Of a stretch of 64,000 nt of DNA, positions 5,339 through 62,119 are shown piece after piece (the stretch's first letter is position 1; every line of letters starts with the position of its first letter). The DNA is taken from contig JACPUH010000021.1 in the NCBI GenBank assembly GCA_016192345.1, positions 58,523 through 122,522 of the forward strand. The letters are read 5' to 3'. A program made the position numbers and the translations under genes. Origin of the DNA: Ignavibacteriales bacterium (lineage in GTDB: Bacteria; Bacteroidota; Ignavibacteria; UBA10030). Below the pieces are notes generated by a model. That model saw nothing but the letters and a program-made list of their open reading frames with translations. It had not been told where the DNA came from and searched no databases.

Positions 5339-7579
5339 TTACTTCAAGAGCACCATTTTTTTGGCGGTCATGAAATCACTCACCCTGAGTTGATAGATAT
5401 ACACACCGGTGGAAAGCCGCGACGCATCGAACGTCGCCACAAACGTTCCCGCCATTTGGTCTGCATTGACGACCGATGCGACTTCCTGGCCAAGGACATT
5501 GAACACCTTTAGGGTGACCCTGCCGGGAACCGGGATGGAATACCGGATCGTCGTACTGGGATTGAAGGGATTCGGATAATTCTGGCTCAGCTCAAAATGA
5601 CCGGGGACGAGATCAACGGTTTCGACGCTTGTGACCGTCCCGAAGTCGTCATCCTTGCGCGGCTCGAGTTTGTAGAAGCTGAACGAATAGTCAAGGATTC
5701 CGCGTAGGAATGACAACCGTGCCCTGTAGGGAATGAGAATGGCATTGGAAGGCTTCGCCGTATAGGAGGCTGACGTGTCGGCGTAATATCTGTTGACTCC
5801 ATTGTCATCCACCCTCAATCCGAACGTTGTGGTGGCGCTGCTGCCGATGAAGAACTCGCCAAAATTACTCCCCGAACCGTTGTTGGGATTATCGGCGTTC
5901 CTTCCAACGATATACGGGTTGTTGATGTTTACCAGCACACCCTCCCACTGTTCGAACGTGGCGTTGCCGTCGACCGGAGGATTACTTAAGGAATAACTGA
6001 CCGATCCGGATCCCGATATGGAGACTGTGGTTGGTCCGGGAACAGTTTTATTCCTCGCATGGACGGTCTTCGAGAGAACCTGGATTTCCGTCTTAGAGAA
6101 GTTCTCCCGCAGGATCCCGGTGACCGTAACACTGTCTCCGCGGGCCAATGTATCAGCACGCACGCCGGCACCATTCCCATAGATCGCCACTCCCTTCCAC
6201 GCACCTGCCGATTCGGCGATATAGAGCCGGGGATTTGAAACTGTTTCCTTGAGATCAGTCGTGTCGGCCGTGACAACGCCCGAGACCGTGACCGTGTCGC
6301 CAACGAAACCCGGTCTTCCGTTGACGTACGGAGTATATTGAAGGTCATACACTGTCAGACCGCTGTTGCGGACCCGATAGAAATAGGGTACGGTCGCGTC
6401 GGGGAATGTCCCGGTGGATCCTTCAGAACCGTACGCTTCGGCGTAATAGCTGACGAGACTGTTATTTGCCTGTGCCGGGATCTGAGCGCGATACAGGGAG
6501 TCTCCAACCGCCAGCGTGAGCTTCAACCGCGTGAAGGTTCCGCTGTCCACCTTGTAGTACAGGGCTGCGCTGTCGATCGTCGCGCCGGTATTGAGGTTCG
6601 ATGCTTTGAACGTCACGCTCACGGAGCTGCTGGAAAGAGGAAGCCCTGGTGAGCGCGTGAGCCCGGTGATGCTCGGTGCAAACTTGTCAATAACCATGTC
6701 GCCCGCGTAGGTGGACCCATTCAACTGACCCGGTCCCGGGTACAGCGGCATGATCGTGTAGTCGCCCGCTGTTCCAGTCCTCGCCTGTGGAATGATGATC
6801 CCGCGGATATAGCTGAGCTTGGTACCAACGGGGGGCGCCGTATAGCGCGAATTGGAATAACGATGTCCACGGAGCGTATAGTATCCTGAGCCGTCATACA
6901 TCTGCATCTGGTTCCCCGCGGCATCGACGAACGTGAATCTTCCCGAGGAAAGGTCGACCGAATTGACCGTGACATTCCGAATGACTACGTACATCCCCTC
7001 GTATTTTTCCCCCCGCGACGGGCGAGGTTGCGTACCGACGGCAAAGCTATCCACGGCAAGCTCAAGGGGGGCGGGGCGTGAACCGCTCTTGACAATCTCC
7101 ACGGCCACCGGGCTCGTGAATGCCGGCGCCGAGGTCGAATAGATATACATCTCCGTGAGGCTGTTGGGCTGGTTACCGAATTCCAATGCACGCCCCACAA
7201 TCGTGATAACGTCGCCGGTATCGATTGCCGTAATTTGAGTTGTTTGAGCGGCATCGGAGGTGTCGTTTGTTAGGACGTTCAATCCCGCATAAATCGCCCC
7301 CGTCGTCGTGTCCTGGATGAAGATATTGTACCGGGCGAGCGTATAGGTGAGAATTCTGGGCTTTACCAGGACGACCCCCGTTACGCGAACCGTGTCGTTG
7401 TCCCGGACGAATTGTGTATCATCCAGAAGTGTCGACGCAGCACTTTGCTGTTGGTCCATTTTGACCAAGGAATCGATCGGCACGATATTGAGTTGGGGGA
7501 TAGTGACATTTTTCTGCGCGGAGGCAAGAGAAACGATGCCTGCCAGGCAGAAAACGGTTAACAGTAGATGTGTTCTCAT
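5339..7579 (-). CDS. secreted protein with T9SS C-terminal sorting domain (Por_secre_tail)
   Basis: 746 aa with signal peptide MRTHLLLTVFCLAGIVSLASAQ. The C-terminus NYPNPFNPSTTIRYSIP...GVYIYQLRV...KKMVLLK matches the type A T9SS CTD (TIGR04183-like). Confidence 0.75.
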   Translation of the reverse strand: MRTHLLLTVFCLAGIVSLASAQKNVTIPQLNIVPIDSLVKMDQQQSAASTLLDDTQFVRDNDTVRVTGVVLVKPRILTYTLARYNIFIQDTTTGAIYAGLNVLTNDTSDAAQTTQITAIDTGDVITIVGRALEFGNQPNSLTEMYIYSTSAPAFTSPVAVEIVKSGSRPAPLELAVDSFAVGTQPRPSRGEKYEGMYVVIRNVTVNSVDLSSGRFTFVDAAGNQMQMYDGSGYYTLRGHRYSNSRYTAPPVGTKLSYIRGIIIPQARTGTAGDYTIMPLYPGPGQLNGSTYAGDMVIDKFAPSITGLTRSPGLPLSSSSVSVTFKASNLNTGATIDSAALYYKVDSGTFTRLKLTLAVGDSLYRAQIPAQANNSLVSYYAEAYGSEGSTGTFPDATVPYFYRVRNSGLTVYDLQYTPYVNGRPGFVGDTVTVSGVVTADTTDLKETVSNPRLYIAESAGAWKGVAIYGNGAGVRADTLARGDSVTVTGILRENFSKTEIQVLSKTVHARNKTVPGPTTVSISGSGSVSYSLSNPPVDGNATFEQWEGVLVNINNPYIVGRNADNPNNGSGSNFGEFFIGSSATTTFGLRVDDNGVNRYYADTSASYTAKPSNAILIPYRARLSFLRGILDYSFSFYKLEPRKDDDFGTVTSVETVDLVPGHFELSQNYPNPFNPSTTIRYSIPVPGRVTLKVFNVLGQEVASVVNADQMAGTFVATFDASRLSTGVYIYQLRVSDFMTAKKMVLLK

Positions 7580-52856: not shown

Positions 52857-53138
52857 AGAGGGGCCCACGAATCCCTTCGGGTCTGAGTTAGGCGCGCATT
52901 TCCTCAGGGTCGAAGACTTCACTAATCTGCGCGAATAGGTTCATGAAAAATCTCGTTTCGTTTGTCCACGAAGTGCACAGCCGGAGACTTATAAACTGAA
53001 GGATGCGAGAGCATCCTGCCAATTGGACCTGTCATTTCTTCAAGGGGCCATACGCCCAGGAGGGAGCACGCTTCGCGTGCTTCAGTAGTATGCCTTCGGC
53101 TGTGAAGATTCGTGTGGATTCGTGGGGAAAAGATTTTT

Positions 53139-53531
53139 TTACTCTTTGTGAATGAACTCATGTCCCGCTTTCTGGAGCGCCTGCACCGCGTGCACCAGTT
53201 GTTCATCCCTCACAAAAATATAATCCGTGTTGAACGTGCTCGTACCGAGAATGGGGACATTGGCTTCCGCCAGCGGTTGCAGCACCGACACCATCACCCC
53301 CACGTCGTCCAGCGTAAATTCCCCCTCGATTTTTATGCAACGCCATCCCAGTTCCTGTTGAACGTTGTTCGGTGCCATGAAATCCGGACAGATAATGCAG
53401 AGTTCCTCATCCGTCCGCATGCTGAAAACCATTTCCCCGTTGGCCAGGATCGAAGGAATCTCCGCGAACTGCGCCAGTTTGTTGACGGTGAACGTGTCAT
53501 TGAGAAGGAAGAGTTTGAATGTTCGGTTCAT
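53139..53531 (-). CDS. ACT-domain-containing small protein
   Basis: Trimmed to MNRTFKLFLLNDTFTV. About 130 aa with an ACT-like beta-alpha-beta-beta-alpha-beta pattern. Confidence 0.5.
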   Translation of the reverse strand: MNRTFKLFLLNDTFTVNKLAQFAEIPSILANGEMVFSMRTDEELCIICPDFMAPNNVQQELGWRCIKIEGEFTLDDVGVMVSVLQPLAEANVPILGTSTFNTDYIFVRDEQLVHAVQALQKAGHEFIHKE

Positions 53532-53753
53532 GACCCTGTCACCCTTTGGTGGGAAAAGACTCGCGCGCGTGACTGCTGTTGATGAATGTAAGACTAATCG
53601 AACATTCCCGCAAGCCCTCAACGGACCCGGAGGCGGGGACGGATGCATCCATCAGGGGCCACTCCCCCGCTCGACTTTTTTCCCTCCTTCATTGAAGCCC
53701 ACCCCAAAATTCATTAGCTTTTGCGAGTCGTTCTTTTCCCACAAGCACCGACC

Positions 53754-56980: not shown

Positions 56981-57733
56981 TTGGATAACGCATATCATTA
57001 CCTTCTTCTCTTCGCGGTCGGAGTCGTCTCCGGCTTCCTCAACGTCATGGCGGGCGGCGGGTCCACGCTTGCGCTCCCCGCGCTGATTTTCATGGGACTC
57101 GATAGCGGTCTCGCCAACGGGACCAACCGCGTCGCCATCCTGATCCAGAACATCTTTGCCGTCGCGTCGTTTCGAAAGCTGGAGGTGCATGCTTTCAAGC
57201 AAAGCCTGAAGTTCACCCTCTGGGCGCTCCCCGGTGCAATCATCGGCGCCATCGTGGGGGTGACGATCAGCGACGCCTGGTTCCAGCGTATCCTCGGTGT
57301 GGTCATGATTGGGACAATCATCACGATCCTTCTCCCGCAATCAGAGAAACGGAGTGAACCGACGGAGGCAGACAGAAAACGGGAGAAGTGGATCTACCCG
57401 GCGATGTTCGCCATCGGCTTCTACGGTGGGTTCATCCAGGTCAGTGTCGGGTTCCTCTTCATGGCCGCTCTTTATTATCTGATGAGAATGAACCTCGTGT
57501 ACGTCAACATGCATAAGGTCACGATCGTGATGATCTACATGGTGCCGGCCCTCGCCATCTATGCCTTCACCGGCAATGTGGACTGGCTGCTGGGGCTCAT
57601 CCTAGGCGCCGGGAGCGCCGTGGGGGGATGGTGGGCAGCGCACGCCTCCGTCAAGGGGGGAGAAAAAATCATCCGCATGGCCCTTGCCGTTGCAATCTTC
57701 ATCATGGCGTTGAAGCTCTTTGAGGTTTTTTAG
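56981..57733 (+). CDS. sulfite exporter TauE/SafE family membrane protein
   Basis: LLLFAVGVVSGFLNVMAGGGSTLALPALIFMGL is a DUF81/TauE signature and is repeated in the second half. The start is TTG; there is no upstream ATG. Confidence 0.75.
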   Translation: MDNAYHYLLLFAVGVVSGFLNVMAGGGSTLALPALIFMGLDSGLANGTNRVAILIQNIFAVASFRKLEVHAFKQSLKFTLWALPGAIIGAIVGVTISDAWFQRILGVVMIGTIITILLPQSEKRSEPTEADRKREKWIYPAMFAIGFYGGFIQVSVGFLFMAALYYLMRMNLVYVNMHKVTIVMIYMVPALAIYAFTGNVDWLLGLILGAGSAVGGWWAAHASVKGGEKIIRMALAVAIFIMALKLFEVF

Positions 57734-57744
57734 AATTGATTATG

Positions 57745-57850
57745 CTGGAAGGAGTGCATCTCTACCAACCCCTCCGTCCCATCACAAAAAGTGATGGGAC
57801 ACCTCCCCTTATCAGGGGAGGAAAAGGAAAGAACAAAGCGAAAACAAATC
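57745..57850 (+). repeat. copy A of a ~100-nt two-hairpin repeat element (5' region of the M28 peptidase gene)
   Basis: cccctccgtcccATCACaaaaaGTGATgggacaCCTCCCCttatcaGGGGAGGaaaagg. Hairpin 1 is 57777-57799 and hairpin 2 is 57802-57821. A second copy is at 61400-61520. Confidence 0.6.
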
Positions 57851-57871
57851 GTAAACATTTCACACGAGATC

Positions 57872-59269
57872 ATGAAAGGAAAACCCGTGAAGCATTTTTC
57901 GCGTTTCTTATTTTTTGTAGCCCTCTCTTTGGCCACTCTATCATTGACCTTAGGTCAAACACCTATTCCATCAAACTATGACTCTCTCGCGCAGGCGATC
58001 GTCCGGGAGGCGCTCGGATCGAACCACTCGTATGCCCTCCTGAACGACCTCGTGATAAAAGTCGGCAATCGCCTGAGTGGTTCCCCGGCCAATGCAAAGG
58101 CGGTGGCATGGGCCAGGAATACCATGGAGCGGCTTGGATTCGAGAATGTCCGGCTCGAGCCGGTGATGGTTCCGAAATGGGTCCGGGGAAATGTGGAAGA
58201 GGCGTTCATTCTCCATCCGGATGGGAAGCAGGAAAGATTGAATATTGTCGCTCTAGGGGGCTCGATCGCAACTCCGAACAAGGGGATTACGGCCGGGGTC
58301 GTTGAGGTGAAATCATTTGAAGAACTCCGCTCCCTGGGCGCGGCCGCGAAAGGGAAGGTCGTCTTTTTCAACAGGCCGATGGACCGAACGCTGATGACCA
58401 CGTTTGCCGGATACAGTGGCGCCGTCAATCAACGGGGACGCGGTGCGGTGGAAGCGGCTTACGCCGGCGGCGTTGCAGCGATCGTCCGCTCCATGACCAC
58501 ACGGCTGGACGATGTGCCGCACACCGGCGGCATGGGGTACGCCGACACCGTAGCCAAAGTCCCGACAGCAGCGGTGAGCACGGTAGGGGCCGAACGATTG
58601 AGCGCCCTTTTAAAAGAAGGAAAGAACATCCGTCTTCAAATCAAACTTTCTGCCCAATCGTTTCCGGATGTCGAGTCGGCGAATGTGCTCGGAGAGTTGC
58701 GCGGTACGGAGAAACCGGAAGAGGTTGTGGTTATCGGCGGACATCTCGATAGTTGGGACAAGGGCCAGGGCGCGCACGATGACGGAGCGGGATGTGTGCA
58801 TGCCATCGAGGCGCTGCGAATTCTGAAGTCGCTTGGCCTGCAGCCAAAGCGGACCATCCGCGCCGTCATGTTCGCGAACGAAGAGAACGGTCTTCGCGGC
58901 GGAACAGCCTACGCGGCACAAGAGCGACTGGGTGAAAAACATATCGCTGCCATCGAATCGGATGCCGGGGGATTTGCCCCGCGTGCGTTCGGCGTCTCCG
59001 AACCAGCGTACGAGAAGGTACTCGCCTGGGCATCGGCTCTCCGGTTCGTCGGCATCGACCGGGTTCAGCGCGGCGGAGGTGGAGCGGATATTGGTCCATT
59101 GATGCGCAAAGGTGTGCCCGGCCTGGGACTGATCCCGGAAGGACACCGGTATTTCGACTACCATCATTCCGACAGCGACACGATCGACAAGGTGAATGAG
59201 CGGGAGCTGGCTCTCGGCTCGGCGGCGATGGCTTTGATGGCGTGGCTGGTGGCGCAAGAGGGGTTGTAG
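57872..59269 (+). CDS. M28-family zinc aminopeptidase, secreted
   Basis: Trimmed to MKGKPVKHFSRFLFFVALSLATLSLTLG (signal peptide). Motifs VVIGGHLDSW, AHDDGAGCVHAIEA and FANEENGLRGG (EE) are the Zn ligands of M28. Confidence 0.8.
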   Translation: MKGKPVKHFSRFLFFVALSLATLSLTLGQTPIPSNYDSLAQAIVREALGSNHSYALLNDLVIKVGNRLSGSPANAKAVAWARNTMERLGFENVRLEPVMVPKWVRGNVEEAFILHPDGKQERLNIVALGGSIATPNKGITAGVVEVKSFEELRSLGAAAKGKVVFFNRPMDRTLMTTFAGYSGAVNQRGRGAVEAAYAGGVAAIVRSMTTRLDDVPHTGGMGYADTVAKVPTAAVSTVGAERLSALLKEGKNIRLQIKLSAQSFPDVESANVLGELRGTEKPEEVVVIGGHLDSWDKGQGAHDDGAGCVHAIEALRILKSLGLQPKRTIRAVMFANEENGLRGGTAYAAQERLGEKHIAAIESDAGGFAPRAFGVSEPAYEKVLAWASALRFVGIDRVQRGGGGADIGPLMRKGVPGLGLIPEGHRYFDYHHSDSDTIDKVNERELALGSAAMALMAWLVAQEGL

Positions 59270-59408
59270 CATAGTTTTTTTACTGTTTGCTGTTAACGCC
59301 GTACGTTTCGGTGAGCCAAGATCCAAATAGAAAAATGCTACGCATTTCTTGTTAATAGGCCTCCGGCTGTTCACGGTTCACCAACCAGGCCTTACCCACG
59401 AAGATTCC

Positions 59409-60194
59409 ATGAACAAAAAAAGAACCGCCCTCGCCATCGGCGCCCATCCGGACGACATTGAATTCCAGATGGCGGGTACGTTACTACTGCTCGAACGCTC
59501 GGGTTATGAGATCCATTACATGAACCTCGCCAGCGGCAATTGTGGCAGTGCAAGACATGACGCGGCGACCATCCGGCGCATCCGTCTCCGGGAGAGCCGG
59601 CGGGCCGCAGGTATCCTCGGCGCACAGTTTCACAAGCCGCTGTGCGACGACCTTGAGATCCTCTACGAACTGAAAACCCTCCGCCGCCTTGCGTCAATCA
59701 TCCGGGAGGTGCGTCCGTCGGTGGTCCTGACACATCCGCCGGTCGATTATATGGAAGATCATACCGCTACCTGCCGGTTGGTCGTTACGGCTGTGTTCGC
59801 GCGGGGTATGCGGAACTTTCGGACCATCCCGGTCCGTCCGGCAGCACAGTATGATGTAACCCTCTACCATTGCATGCCTCACACACTGCGCGATCCACTG
59901 AGACAACGGGTGCTCCCCGGAGCGTTCGTCAATATATCGACTGTTCAATCGGTTAAGATGGAAGCTCTGAGGGCCCACCAAAGCCAGCAGGGCTGGCTCG
60001 ATGCAAGCCAGAAACTCGATTCGTATGTGCAAACCATGGAGGAGATGGCGCGGGAGCTTGGGCGCATGTCGAAGAAATTCCGCTACGCCGAAGGATGGCG
60101 ACGGCATTCGCATGCCGGGTTCGGAGAACCGGACGACGACCCGTTGAAAGTGCTCGGGAAGGACTACCTGATCAATACCCTCTATGAACGCTGA
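59409..60194 (+). CDS. PIG-L/LmbE-family N-acetylglucosaminyl deacetylase
   Basis: Trimmed to MNKKRTALAIGAHPDDIEFQMAGT, which is the LmbE zinc-binding motif HPDDxE. Confidence 0.75.
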   Translation: MNKKRTALAIGAHPDDIEFQMAGTLLLLERSGYEIHYMNLASGNCGSARHDAATIRRIRLRESRRAAGILGAQFHKPLCDDLEILYELKTLRRLASIIREVRPSVVLTHPPVDYMEDHTATCRLVVTAVFARGMRNFRTIPVRPAAQYDVTLYHCMPHTLRDPLRQRVLPGAFVNISTVQSVKMEALRAHQSQQGWLDASQKLDSYVQTMEEMARELGRMSKKFRYAEGWRRHSHAGFGEPDDDPLKVLGKDYLINTLYER

Positions 60195-60195
60195 T

Positions 60196-60240
60196 TTCGC
60201 GGATTTACGCGGATGGACGCGGATGAACGCGGATTACGCT
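60196..60240. repeat. four 10-bp phased direct repeats CGCGGATNNN immediately after the LmbE-like gene stop
   Basis: cgcggattta cgcggatgga cgcggatgaa cgcggattac. The 10-bp period places all copies on one helical face. It lies 180 nt upstream of the NagB-like gene. Confidence 0.6.
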
Positions 60241-60423
60241 GATCGGTACGGAGGAGTGATTCCCAATGCATCGTCCGTGGTTAAAGAAGTATTTTTTCAC
60301 CACGGATGACACACCGAAAGACACGGAAAAAAAGAAAGAAGTTGAATTTTCAATATCAGTGCTTATCTGTGTGCCATCCGTGGATAAATCCCCTTAGCCT
60401 TTCCCACAATACCATGACACCCC

Positions 60424-61353
60424 ATGCCACGCAAGCTCAGCTCACTCGCCCCCGACTGGTGGGATTACACCACGCTCGACCCTGAGATTATCCGGGACGC
60501 TGCCAAACTTACGCCGGAGGATATCCTCAAACTCTCCCGGCCCGGTTTCAAGGTTGTCTTCTACGATACGCTCGAGGAGTTTTATTGCGCCGAGGCGCTC
60601 GAATATGTCGAAGCCTGGAAGCAATCGACCGACGATAACCCCGTCGGTGTGTGCGGCCCCATTGGTCCGACTGAGCAACTTCCGCTCGTCGCACGTATCG
60701 TCAATGCGATCGGACTGAAATTGCATACCGCCCATTTCTGGGGGATGGACGAGTGGGCCATCGACAGCAAGGAGGTTCCCCCCACACATCCTCTCTCCTT
60801 CGAACGCTGTGACCGTGAGCTTTGCTTCAATCGCATCGACAAGAAGCTCGTCATGCCGGACGACCATCTCCACTTTCCCAAAGCGGACACCGCGGCATAT
60901 AGGGAAAGCTGGGAAGAGGCGCGCTGCGCTGTGATGCAGGGGGGTCAGGGAGACATTAAGCACTGGGCTTTCAATGATCCGGTTCGACGGCAGGGGAATT
61001 ACAGCGATGCACCCCCCACTCCGGAGGAATACCGCCGGCTCGCCACCCGGCTGGTCGATCTCCATCCGGTCACCATCATGCAGAATGCGCGCACGTCCGG
61101 AGGGGGCAACGTGAGCATGGTGCCTACGCAAGCCATCACGGTCGGGCCGGTAGAGACGTGGAAAGCCGAGAAGGTATCGATCTGGCACGCGGGAAACCAT
61201 GACAATCCGTTCGGTCAGCGCCTGACGCCATTCATGATTTCGAAGAGGTTTGTCGACACCTCGGTTCCGATGTCGCTCCTCGCCGATCACCCGAACGTGC
61301 AGTTCAATTACTACCGTGGCGGCATCGGCACCTGTAGCGTAGCAATGCATTGA
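60424..61353 (+). CDS. NagB-family glucosamine-6-phosphate deaminase/isomerase-like protein
   Basis: FWGMDEWAI matches NagB FNMDEY (catalytic Asp). [14 protein letters not shown] matches GGIGPDGHIAFNEP (catalytic His). It is 309 aa, longer than canonical NagB, with Glu replaced by Asp in NEP. Confidence 0.55.
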
Positions 61354-61399
61354 AGAACGAGAGGGGGCCAGAGAACCATGCCTTTAACAATGATTGAAG

Positions 61400-61520
61400 A
61401 GGTGCTGGAAAAAAACCTTGATGGTGGTGTTGGATCTACCGACCCCTCCGTCCCGTCACAAAAGAAGTGACGTGACACCTCCCCTTGGCAGGGGAGGAAA
61501 ACAAAGAACAACGCGATGAT
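61400..61520 (+). repeat. copy B of the two-hairpin repeat element (upstream region of citrate synthase)
   Basis: cccctccgtcccGTCACaaaagaaGTGACgtgacaCCTCCCCttggcaGGGGAGGaaaac. It has the same two hairpins with a compensatory A-T to G-C change in stem 1. The flanks are also similar (tgattgaagaggtgctggaa vs tgattatgctggaagg; gatctacc vs atctctacc). Confidence 0.6.
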
Positions 61521-62119
61521 GCAAGTTTCCCCCCACGCTTCTCATTTTTGATTCATTCCCTCCTTCCAAGACCTAAGAACCCGACGGCATTCCCATACCG
61601 AAACCGGGAAACCATTCCCCCTCTCCAATCATAAGAAGTAGGAATTGAGCGACGACCGCGCCTGGATGGGGTGGCACAGAACATGTGCCGGTCTCTCTGC
61701 GGGAGCGGCTTCGTAAGAGCGACACTCCACGATGCAGTTCGAAGCCCTCTCCGAAATCGCTTGACGTTTGAAGCGTCTGACGATTCTGTTATCCACCCCC
61801 TTGTCATGAGTCGACGCTTGTTTCTCAGCCCTTGAGAACCTTGGTGAAGCTGTCTCAAACCATACAGAGATCGGTCCACCGGACACTCGTTCCTCCGCGG
61901 GATTCCTTTCGATTCCATCCCCCCATCCGTCCGGTCAACGGCACGCACATATTGTTCCCAACAGTCGAAACAGACACAATCACTCAACCATAAAGAGAGC
62001 GAAGCTGTATTCTCTTCACTCCGGCGGTTCCGTCGTTGCACGAGTCATGGACGGCTCTCTTCATTCCATGCACGATGCACCGGCGGCGCCCCGCATTCTC
62101 ACTCACGCAAGGAGGTCCT

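Follow-up and report, generated by a model that had tools for sequence, protein, structure and literature searches.

The two copies of a structured repeat in the 64,000-nt stretch of Ignavibacteriales DNA analyzed here (referred to as the window) are units of a dispersed, non-coding, intergenic repeat family that spans many bacterial phyla. Read on the plus strand, each unit is composed of box 1, (A)CCCCTCC, followed by hairpin 1 (GTC...GAC), a single A, and hairpin 2, in which the 5' arm CCTCCCC(T), here called the Y arm, is separated by a loop from the 3' arm (A)GGGGAGG, the R arm. The sequence of box 1 mirrors that of the Y arm, itself paired with the R arm, and box 1 covaries with the Y arm, so that what looked like a two-hairpin repeat becomes a potential intrastrand triplex element. 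We consider it probable that the family represents a DNA-level structural or selfish repeat, with a transient single-strand fold that would promote local deletion and rearrangement.

Two copies of a two-hairpin repeat in the window

The first-pass annotation had placed two copies of the repeat in the same orientation on the plus strand, and both were recovered there by blastn, copy A at positions 57761-57841 and copy B at 61435-61516, with 86.7% identity over 83 columns (E = 3e-13) and two adjacent hairpins in each. Both strands are predicted to fold into these hairpins (z-scores of -4.1 to -6.3 relative to shuffled sequences). No third copy was found within the 64-kb window by nhmmer or a covariance model; the chance expectation for the 17-nt and 28-nt boxes is 0-0.44 matches. 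Both copies are intergenic. Copy A is flanked by a TauE-family gene (56981-57733) and the M28 peptidase gene (57872-59269), ending approximately 30 nt before the ATG of the latter at 57872, and copy B lies between an unannotated 309-aa open reading frame (ORF; 60424-61353) and the conserved gltA leader, which lies just 3' of copy B, with gltA itself approximately 520 nt downstream. The two direct copies are spaced 3674 nt apart, with three genes (M28, PIG-L, and the 309-aa ORF) between them.

In copy A, the putative third-strand box ACCCCTCC occupies positions 57768..57775 of the plus strand, mirroring the 5' arm of hairpin 2 and reading GGAGGGGT on the minus strand. It is followed by the bridging hairpin 1, GTCCCATCAC-AAAAA-GTGATGGGAC (57776..57800, plus strand), with a 10-bp stem closed by GTC/GAC, then by a spacer consisting of a single A (57801, plus strand), and by hairpin 2 (57802..57821, plus strand), with Y arm CCTCCCCT, loop TATC, and R arm AGGGGAGG. 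Copy B is built in the same order on the plus strand, with box 1 ACCCCTCC at 61442..61449, hairpin 1 GTCCCGTCAC-AAAAGAA-GTGACGTGAC at 61450..61476, and hairpin 2 CCTCCCCT-TGGC-AGGGGAGG at 61478..61497. Each copy ends in an A-rich tail on the same strand (AAAAGGAAAGAACAAAGCGAAAAC at 57822..57845 in copy A, AAAACAAAGAACAACGCGA at 61498..61516 in copy B), and since this tail is common to both copies and to those of the relatives described below, it belongs to a lineage-specific unit. The 5' flank of that unit, AAACCTTGATGGTGGTGTTGGATCTACCG (61405..61441, plus strand), precedes copy B and is kept with both copies in the relative whose M28 peptidase is 88% identical (L237/L238, the 88% M28 relative) and partly at another locus of the lineage, L012, with only its last ~13 nt retained at copy A (57755-57767).

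The arms of hairpin 1 differ between copies by an A-T to G-C double change (GTCCCATCAC/GTGATGGGAC to GTCCCGTCAC/GTGACGTGAC). This compensation, proposed in the first-pass annotation, is real, but that reading glossed over an additional G-to-T change that leaves one C.T mismatch in copy B. Because copy B and L012 share the G-C variant, the compensatory change represents one inherited event in the lineage. The loop of hairpin 1 carries a 2-nt indel between copies A and B; it shifts the reading frame, and the 30-aa ORF over copy B is thus no conserved peptide, in agreement with the earlier observation that its frame is not kept in copy A. The equivalent frame in the 88% relative stops after 5 codons, and a peptide was rejected as an explanation.

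A repeat family spanning many phyla

One genome per species was scanned with a pattern restricted to hairpin 2 and the bases directly beside it, ACACCTCCCC N4-8 GGGGAGGAAA, with box 1 left free. At least 120 loci matched, a count that, like the other family counts below, includes related copies and does not represent independent events. Among the matches listed, the named hits are mostly from Alphaproteobacteria, with others from Bacteroidota, Chloroflexota/Dehalococcoidia, Acidimicrobiia, CPR bacteria, and a Bordetella. Maricaulis, Hyphococcus, and Alkalicaulis are examples of isolates in which the element is abundant. A box that the pattern did not specify, CCCCTCCGTC (at most one mismatch), lies 10-40 nt upstream in 106 of the 125 matches listed, and the interval between this box and hairpin 2 folds, among these matches, as a hairpin with GTC/GAC closure. 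This closure is kept across phyla, as is the single A/T spacer.

A metagenome scan showed that AT-rich genomes carry the same box-hairpin-hairpin unit, in which hairpin 1 is AT-rich and the three boxes are G/C-rich; a first metagenome scan using a lineage-specific hairpin-1 pattern had given no matches. The element is also present on viral contigs, in places at 3-5 copies per 10 kb. As these loci were ascertained through type I patterns, other types are under-sampled, and a generic detector of a hairpin within 3 nt upstream was too noisy for use. A literature search with sequence strings returned primer coincidences only, and no description of a hairpin-bridged triplex form was found in the searchable literature, the coverage of which is incomplete. 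The first-pass annotation had allowed that these might be the only two copies, with no covariation to be seen elsewhere; instead, there are hundreds of relatives with massive covariation in hairpin 1, and its suggestion of a REP/MITE-like element, one of several that it offered, holds.

Hairpin 1 is conserved in structure and free in sequence

In 97 elements, we counted 81 distinct hairpin-1 sequences. When 150 elements were aligned with a covariance model, a procedure that is fitted to the model and favors pairing somewhat, 98.2% of the hairpin-1 cells were paired, and 12 of the 15 pairs change on both sides. Double-change cells numbered 239; shuffles gave 47, and controls with slid partners gave no more than 26. 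The constraint on hairpin 1 is one of structure only, with the sequence varying freely, and the earlier proposal of selection on structure and not on coding, made from a single paired change, is borne out at the level of the family.

Box 1 is a mirror that tracks the hairpin-2 arm

Box 1 had been taken in the first-pass annotation as a plain conserved box, cccctccgtccc; it is in fact the covarying mirror of the hairpin-2 arm, as evident from other sets of boxes and arms read from neighboring elements outside the scan pattern. In these elements, box 1 CCCCCTC accompanies Y arm CTCCCCC and R arm GGGGGAG, box 1 CCCCTCT accompanies TCTCCCC and GGGGAGA, and box 1 CCCCTTC accompanies CTTCCCC and GGGGAAG; three more sets, again given as box 1, Y arm, and R arm, are CCCCCTTCC, CCTTCCCCC, and GGGGGAAGG; CCCTCTCC, CCTCTCCC, and GGGAGAGG; and CCCCACCC, CCCTCCCC, and GGGGAGGG. 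Outside the scan selection, a perfect mirror of the arm was found at most 60 nt upstream in 58 of 185 hairpin-orientations, representing 26 arm types, whereas the three controls (direct copy upstream, mirror downstream, and direct copy downstream) gave 12-16 each.

The position of the T/A base shifts in concert across all three boxes in the 26 arm types. When the number of C's from the T to the stem base in the arm was tabulated against the number of C's from the T/A to hairpin 1 in box 1, the two counts were equal and the table was diagonal, its off-diagonal entries being false boxes contributed by the arms of neighboring hairpins. In the model alignment, parallel 'pairs' between box 1 and the R arm showed 12 double changes, compared to 0.8 in shuffles. 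Viral sequences behaved likewise: with the arm fixed as TCTCCCC and box 1 left free, CCCCTCT was present in 110 of 165 elements and the type I box in 1, and with the arm fixed as CCCTCCCC, the box CCCCACCC was present in 5 of 12, while with CTCCCCC or CTTCCCC as the fixed arm, true elements in the viral scans were too few to inform. Template-directed processes yield direct or inverted repeats, not mirror repeats. A mirror box that tracks the duplex is what a third strand lying in the major groove would require.

The triad code points to a probable fold of the G-rich DNA strand

The box-1 base facing an A-T pair of hairpin 2 is T or A and almost never C or G; where it is not T, it is A in 35 of 41 cases, and about a quarter of the family members have A opposite the A-T pair. 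No comparable base preference was seen at the C-facing box-1 positions, which lie opposite G-C pairs. On the C-rich strand, a parallel pyrimidine motif would tolerate T only and needs protonated C's. Read on the G-rich strand, A or T opposite A-T gives A.A-T and T.A-T triads, which together with G.G-C constitute the code of the antiparallel purine motif. Both window copies have T at the core box-1 position, and in both, a conserved A before CCCCTCC matches an extra T-A pair on the loop side of hairpin 2, giving a putative eighth triad of the T.A-T kind on the minus strand. Since the triad code and this eighth triad fit the purine motif, the favored folder would be the minus, G-rich strand as single-stranded DNA, and the most likely fold is 5'-CCTCCCCT-loop-AGGGGAGG-T-[hairpin 1]-GGAGGGGT-3' on that strand. 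In the nomenclature of Holder et al., the antiparallel purine motif is class II, and purine-motif triplexes do not form in RNA (PMC4666352). Given the core T of the window copies, a pyrimidine-motif fold of their plus strand, as RNA or DNA, is conceivable as well.

According to the mechanism we favor, the Y and R arms would pair as a Watson-Crick hairpin, and box 1 would lie along the purine arm in the major groove, so that the minus strand, in the order 5'-CCTCCCC-loop-GGGGAGG-T-[hairpin 1]-GGAGGGG-3', may form as single-stranded DNA a class II intrastrand triplex of 7-8 G.G-C, A.A-T, and T.A-T triads. A stack of 7-8 triads is short. Hairpin 1 would stand in for the 3-nt second loop of the BoxC/PIT/TMECO repeats considered below. 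The fold would be transient, arising when the duplex opens in replication, transcription, or repair, and its main effect would be local instability, seen as partial deletions and as gain or loss between close relatives. The physical triplex, the choice of DNA over RNA as the molecule that folds, the tie to instability, and the way in which the element spreads, for which no transposase was identified, are all inferred from sequence patterns of this kind.

The alternative with the same geometry would operate in RNA. Here, the plus transcript would form two hairpins, with CCCCUCC making a parallel pyrimidine triple helix (C+.G-C, U.A-U) with hairpin 2, and the structure would act as a processing barrier or as a 3'-end or intercistronic stabilizer. 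Mirror geometry suits a class IV pyrimidine-motif triplex equally (PMC4666352), the hairpins are stable, the T at the core third-strand position of the window copies is as such a helix would have it, and REP hairpins and ENE-type triple helices act comparably. A hint in the same direction may be that five of five type I copies in the Ignavibacteriales lineage, the window's two and the relatives' three, which represent just two orthologous sites and L012, are found between co-directional genes and on their sense strand. However, six consecutive C+.G-C triads would need protonation, which is unlikely at cytoplasmic pH, and the A opposite A-T in roughly a quarter of the members, carried by the window copies at the eighth position, fits only the purine motif that RNA does not form. 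Moreover, with elements in both orientations and in inverted pairs, half would be transcribed as the G-rich form; a terminator-like tail is absent, and close relatives dispense with the element. We regard an RNA-level role as unlikely.

Gain and loss at the same locus in relatives

Whereas the window has solo type I copies at both sites, the 88% M28 relative carries at both a composite of approximately 190 nt, in which an inverted type II element (CACCCCCTC/CTCCCCCTC/GAGGGGGAG) is followed by a spacer of ~70 nt and then by type I. At site B of the window, the inner half of the type II partner has an aligned counterpart directly after the stop codon of the 309-aa ORF. This probable remnant of the inverted partner, AGAACGAGAGGGGGCCAGA (61354..61372, plus strand), was recognized from one alignment (L238 4985-5045); the 88% relative retains the partner intact at the equivalent site, and in the window the half with hairpin 2 has been deleted. 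The alignment suggests that a deletion of ~110 nt may have removed part of the type II partner at site B. At site A of the window, the type II partner is wholly missing.

No element was found in the TauE-M28 or M28-gltA spacers of the 84% and 74% M28 relatives, and M28 keeps its TauE-M28 synteny in relatives without the element. Gene content between M28 and gltA varies, with no genes in between in one relative (L239), PIG-L and the 309-aa ORF in the window, and an extra GFO/IDH/MocA gene in L238. The empty-site comparison with L239 gave no clean element boundaries, and the ~190-nt composite of L238 has roughly palindromic ends, with no target-site duplication or parent insertion sequence (IS) identified. 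Across these four genomes, the pattern of gain and loss at the locus matches, by analogy, the instability described for TMECO.

The pattern can also be read as that of a hairpin-only REP/MITE-like repeat moved by a protein, be it HUH/RAYT-like, another transposase, or a nucleoid protein, in which the mirror box is a recognition feature and no triplex is formed. Such a repeat would be expected to be multi-copy, intergenic, present in both orientations and in inverted pairs, and patchy among close relatives, as this one is, and the GTC/GAC closure and A/T spacer kept across phyla as well as the composite at two sites of the 88% relative are in line with protein recognition. A protein that reads single strands, however, needs no opposite-polarity mirror tracking 26 arm sequences, nor would it account for the restriction to exactly T or A where the box faces A-T pairs. 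At the loci examined, neither a GTAG-type REP signature nor a terminal inverted repeat accompanied by a target-site duplication was seen, and no transposase gene was associated with the element; sequence conservation across phyla is unlike the lineage-specific REP families. Movement by a protein as the whole explanation is accordingly improbable, and we retain the DNA-level repeat with a transient triplex fold as the preferred reading.

A gene-specific regulatory role is not supported

The first-pass annotation had listed a cis-regulatory RNA as its first option. This option does not agree with the distribution of the family, whose neighbors are unrelated genes in many phyla and whose members include many opposite-strand neighbor pairs, as detected by the covariance model. 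Gene calls beyond the Ignavibacteriales loci are rough ORF calls; with these crude calls, the orientation of the elements relative to flanking ORFs at the genome loci was same/same in 29 cases, opposite/opposite in 47, convergent in 25, and divergent in 30, and no strong bias is evident; ORFs downstream of the viral elements are somewhat enriched for the same orientation. The option is further weakened by the empty orthologous spacers of the 84% and 74% relatives and by the lack of Rfam, terminator, or promoter signals. Rfam 15 gave no hits at gathering thresholds in the window and only chance-level ones (E >= 0.35) within 57600-62100. Scans for terminators and promoters were at chance level, with no terminator hits at the elements, and in place of an intrinsic-terminator layout, A's follow hairpin 2 on the plus strand and T's precede it on the minus strand; a terminator or promoter was rejected on these grounds. 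Most likely, the element has no gene-specific regulatory role.

In its specific form, a cis-regulatory leader of the M28 peptidase and gltA genes would have hairpin 2 sequester the Shine-Dalgarno (SD)-like GGAGG, or box 1 engage in alternative pairing as in a riboswitch or thermosensor. Both copies are indeed upstream of plus-strand genes, GGGGAGG is paired with the anti-SD-like ACCUCC, and in some alphaproteobacterial hits an ATG lies 4-13 nt after GGAGGAAA. Yet the distance from GGAGG is 51 nt to the M28 ATG and ~540 nt to gltA, start codons too far off for sequestration, and GGAGG is wholly missing from type II and TCT variants, which keep the architecture without GGAGG/CCUCC; the latter also disposes of mimicry of the 16S tail, suggested by the resemblance of ACACCUCC to the 16S 3' end. 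For box 1 to pair instead with the R arm, it would have to be a direct copy of the Y arm, which was found in 9-14 control cases versus 40-58 for the mirror. With the orthologous genes of the 84% and 74% relatives lacking the element, unrelated flanking genes across the family, and no Rfam match, such a leader is very improbable. An i-motif or G-quadruplex was ruled out by reasoning, as the tracts (4-1-2 ... 2-1-4, 5-1-1) lack four usable runs and the complementary arm on the same strand favors duplex.

Finally, a relic of local duplication or att-like direct repeats around a 3.6-kb insert (M28, PIG-L, and the 309-aa ORF), to which the direct copies 3674 nt apart around three genes and the variable M28-gltA content would be suited, is scarcely credible, given that TauE-M28 synteny persists in relatives without the element, that no integrase or recombinase gene is present, and that the same element occurs at hundreds of unrelated loci, a family-wide distribution that rules out either version as a sufficient explanation.

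Significance of a hairpin-bridged architecture

According to a 2026 review, the physiological relevance of bacterial DNA triplexes is unresolved (PMC13463272), and in our framing of this literature, BoxC/PIT/TMECO is the only well-studied bacterial intrastrand triplex repeat and has no assigned function. The present family adds a much more widespread architecture, with a hairpin as the bridge from the duplex to the putative third strand, and in it the third-strand box follows the duplex by the purine-motif triad code, a relation that is hard to explain unless the fold matters. More tentatively, these repeats may constitute a pan-bacterial class of hairpin-bridged triplex repeats missed by loop-capped surveys, in which triplex-forming potential is itself selected, with the mirror box as the first covariation evidence. 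If this potential is selected, the fold should form in vivo with a consequence or a dedicated partner, candidates being replication pausing, recombination, and a structure-specific enzyme that spreads the element. The family offers natural variants for biophysical and in vivo study, and it accounts for a recurrent class of GC-rich intergenic repeats that are easily mistaken during annotation for regulatory RNAs, small ORFs, or terminators.

Comparison with known systems

BoxC, PIT, and TMECO denote the same E. coli repeat, 5'-CCCTCNCCC N3-6 GGGNGAGGG N3 GGGNGAGGG, which as a single-stranded oligonucleotide forms a stable class II triplex (Tm of 70-82 C, by CD and NMR) that has been seen neither in duplex DNA nor by in vivo DMS footprinting (PMC4666352). 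TMECO repeats are always intergenic, without strand bias, and often arranged as inverted pairs of two subtypes; they have no promoter or terminator activity, are linked to small deletions and rearrangements between strains, and have been reported from 262 proteobacterial genomes (PMC4666352).

The family described here resembles BoxC/PIT/TMECO in the succession, on one strand, of a Y arm, its complement the R arm, and a third box mirroring R, and in its class II logic of G.G-C with A.A-T or T.A-T, which for the window element is predicted from sequence. It is likewise G/C-rich, multi-copy, and intergenic, occurs in both orientations with inverted type II(-)/type I(+) subtype pairs, and varies between close relatives by presence or absence and by partial deletion; promoter or terminator activity is absent from TMECO, and such signals were not found in the window scans. 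The minus strand of both copies reads CCTCCCC(T)...(A)GGGGAGG...GGAGGGG(T), the three-block class II layout of PIT/ITxF. Its 7 perfect triads, or 8 with the loop-end T.A-T, agree with the PIT/ITxF stem threshold (>=6-7, with <=1 mismatch), and loop 1, of 4-6 nt, is within the short-loop limit. From R to the third strand, the linker runs over this limit; its length is 26 nt (copy A) or 28 nt (copy B), and it forms a 10-bp hairpin.

Accordingly, where the second loop of TMECO is 3 nt, the family has a base-paired hairpin of 11-40 nt with GTC/GAC closure; TMECO has 9 triads compared to the predicted 7-8 here, and the boxes CCTCCCC/GGGGAGG/GGAGGGG differ from the TMECO consensus CCCTCNCCC/GGGNGAGGG. 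The host range also extends beyond the Proteobacteria of TMECO, covering Ignavibacteria/Bacteroidota, Chloroflexota, Acidimicrobiia, and CPR bacteria along with Alphaproteobacteria. By its sequence, the window element follows PIT logic yet departs from the loop limit and the consensus, and it is not a TMECO member. Linker lengths from box 1 to the Y arm follow a bimodal distribution among 92 mirror-box elements, with 17 at 0-6 nt, 1 at 7-10 nt, and 74 above 10 nt, nearly all of the last folding as a hairpin. The permitted loop length was 1-6 nt with ITxF (Holder et al. 2015, PMC4666352) and 0-10 nt in the search of Hoyne et al. 2000, as described in PMC4666352, so that 74 of 92 linkers lie outside both published survey limits. 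A TMECO-like short-linker form occurs at four alphaproteobacterial loci (L085, L105, L108, and L076) and is absent from the window.

With REP/BIME, ERIC, Correia, and RUP elements, the family shares short length, GC-rich hairpins, high copy number, intergenic location, inverted clusters, and variability between strains. REP elements are imperfect palindromes of 20-40 nt with a conserved GTAG-type tetranucleotide at the 5' end, and each family is confined to its lineage and linked to a cognate RAYT transposase. They lack a covarying mirror box, whereas here GTAG is absent, the family spans phyla, and both architecture and box sequences are kept across them. H-DNA resembles the element in its mirror repeat of a pyrimidine tract, its Hoogsteen or reverse-Hoogsteen third strand, and its association with instability; it arises from supercoiled duplex, where a mirror repeat suffices, while here the R arm and bridging hairpin would let a single strand supply all three strands. 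RNA triple helices, such as the ENE/MALAT1 3' end and the riboswitch pseudoknots SAM-II and preQ1-II, similarly involve a strand that folds into the major groove of its own helix. These are U.A-U-rich RNAs with a defined partner, a poly(A) tail or a ligand, in contrast to the G/C-rich element described here, in which the alternation of T and A fits the purine motif of DNA.

Conserved blocks and variable gene content around gltA

Directly 3' of the tail of the copy B element, the gltA leader carries sequence blocks that are kept both in the relative with an 88%-identical M28 peptidase (L238) and in the 84% relative. Across window positions 61530-61700, one set reads TTCTCATTTTTGATTCA...CCTTCCAA...TTCCCATACCGAAACCGGGAAA, and a second set, GTGGCACAGAACATGTGCCGG...CGCGGGAGCGG, is likewise kept in these relatives; the blocks are conserved even in the relative that lacks the repeat element. 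This region may be a promoter or a structured 5' leader of citrate synthase, and the 162-aa minus-strand open reading frame (ORF) that overlaps the leader (61553-62041) is probably spurious.

Comparison of the M28 peptidase-gltA interval (window 59270-62035) with L238 and L239 revealed that gene content here varies between close relatives. The window encodes PIG-L and a 309-aa ORF, L238 has GFO/IDH/MocA along with PIG-L and the 309-aa ORF, and L239 holds a 64-aa minus-strand call and nothing else. The spacer between PIG-L and the 309-aa ORF contains an imperfect inverted repeat (60295-60388; 33-nt arms, 76% complementary, 28-nt spacer), for which Rfam returned only miRNA-precursor matches, all at chance level.

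A further intergenic stretch, window 52944-53011 (68 nt, within the intergenic region 52857-53700), is 82% identical to positions 316-381 of L012, a locus sharing the hairpin-1 variant of copy B. The L012 stretch lies approximately 150 nt from that locus's own triplex-type element, with the rest of the contig unalignable; it may represent a further conserved non-coding element or small repeat common to these Ignavibacteria/Bacteroidota genomes.

Variant architectures and distribution of the element

The minimal unit CCCCTCCGTCCTTCGGACACCTCCCC is identical in Prolixibacteraceae, Sediminibacterium, and one Nomurabacteria MAG, a pattern that may reflect horizontal spread or else strong convergence. 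Among metagenome contigs from very AT-rich genomes (L403, L408, L413, L419, L421, and L424), hairpin 1 is composed of A and T only (GTTTTTTGATTACAAAAAAC), with boxes that are still G/C-rich. In two Chloroflexi MAGs (L015, 2636-2730; L120, minus strand, around 6000-6140), a single box 1 and hairpin 1 precede 2-4 tandem hairpin-2 units (GACACCTCCCCATAAATGGGGAGGACC), arrays that suggest that hairpin 2 is able to amplify independently.

Two elements, at L005 -1791 and L047 -5938, are exceptions to the rule that box 1 mirrors the hairpin-2 Y arm: box CCCCCACCC occurs with arm CCTCCCC(C), the register is off by one position, and the stem base carries an extra A-T pair.

Alongside the hairpin-bridged type, six alphaproteobacterial loci (L085, L105, L108, L076, L007, and L049) contain short-linker elements, exemplified by CCCTCACCC-TAA-CCCTCTCCC-loop-GGGAGAGGG; this is the short-linker form in which the TMECO/BoxC triplex repeats were published.
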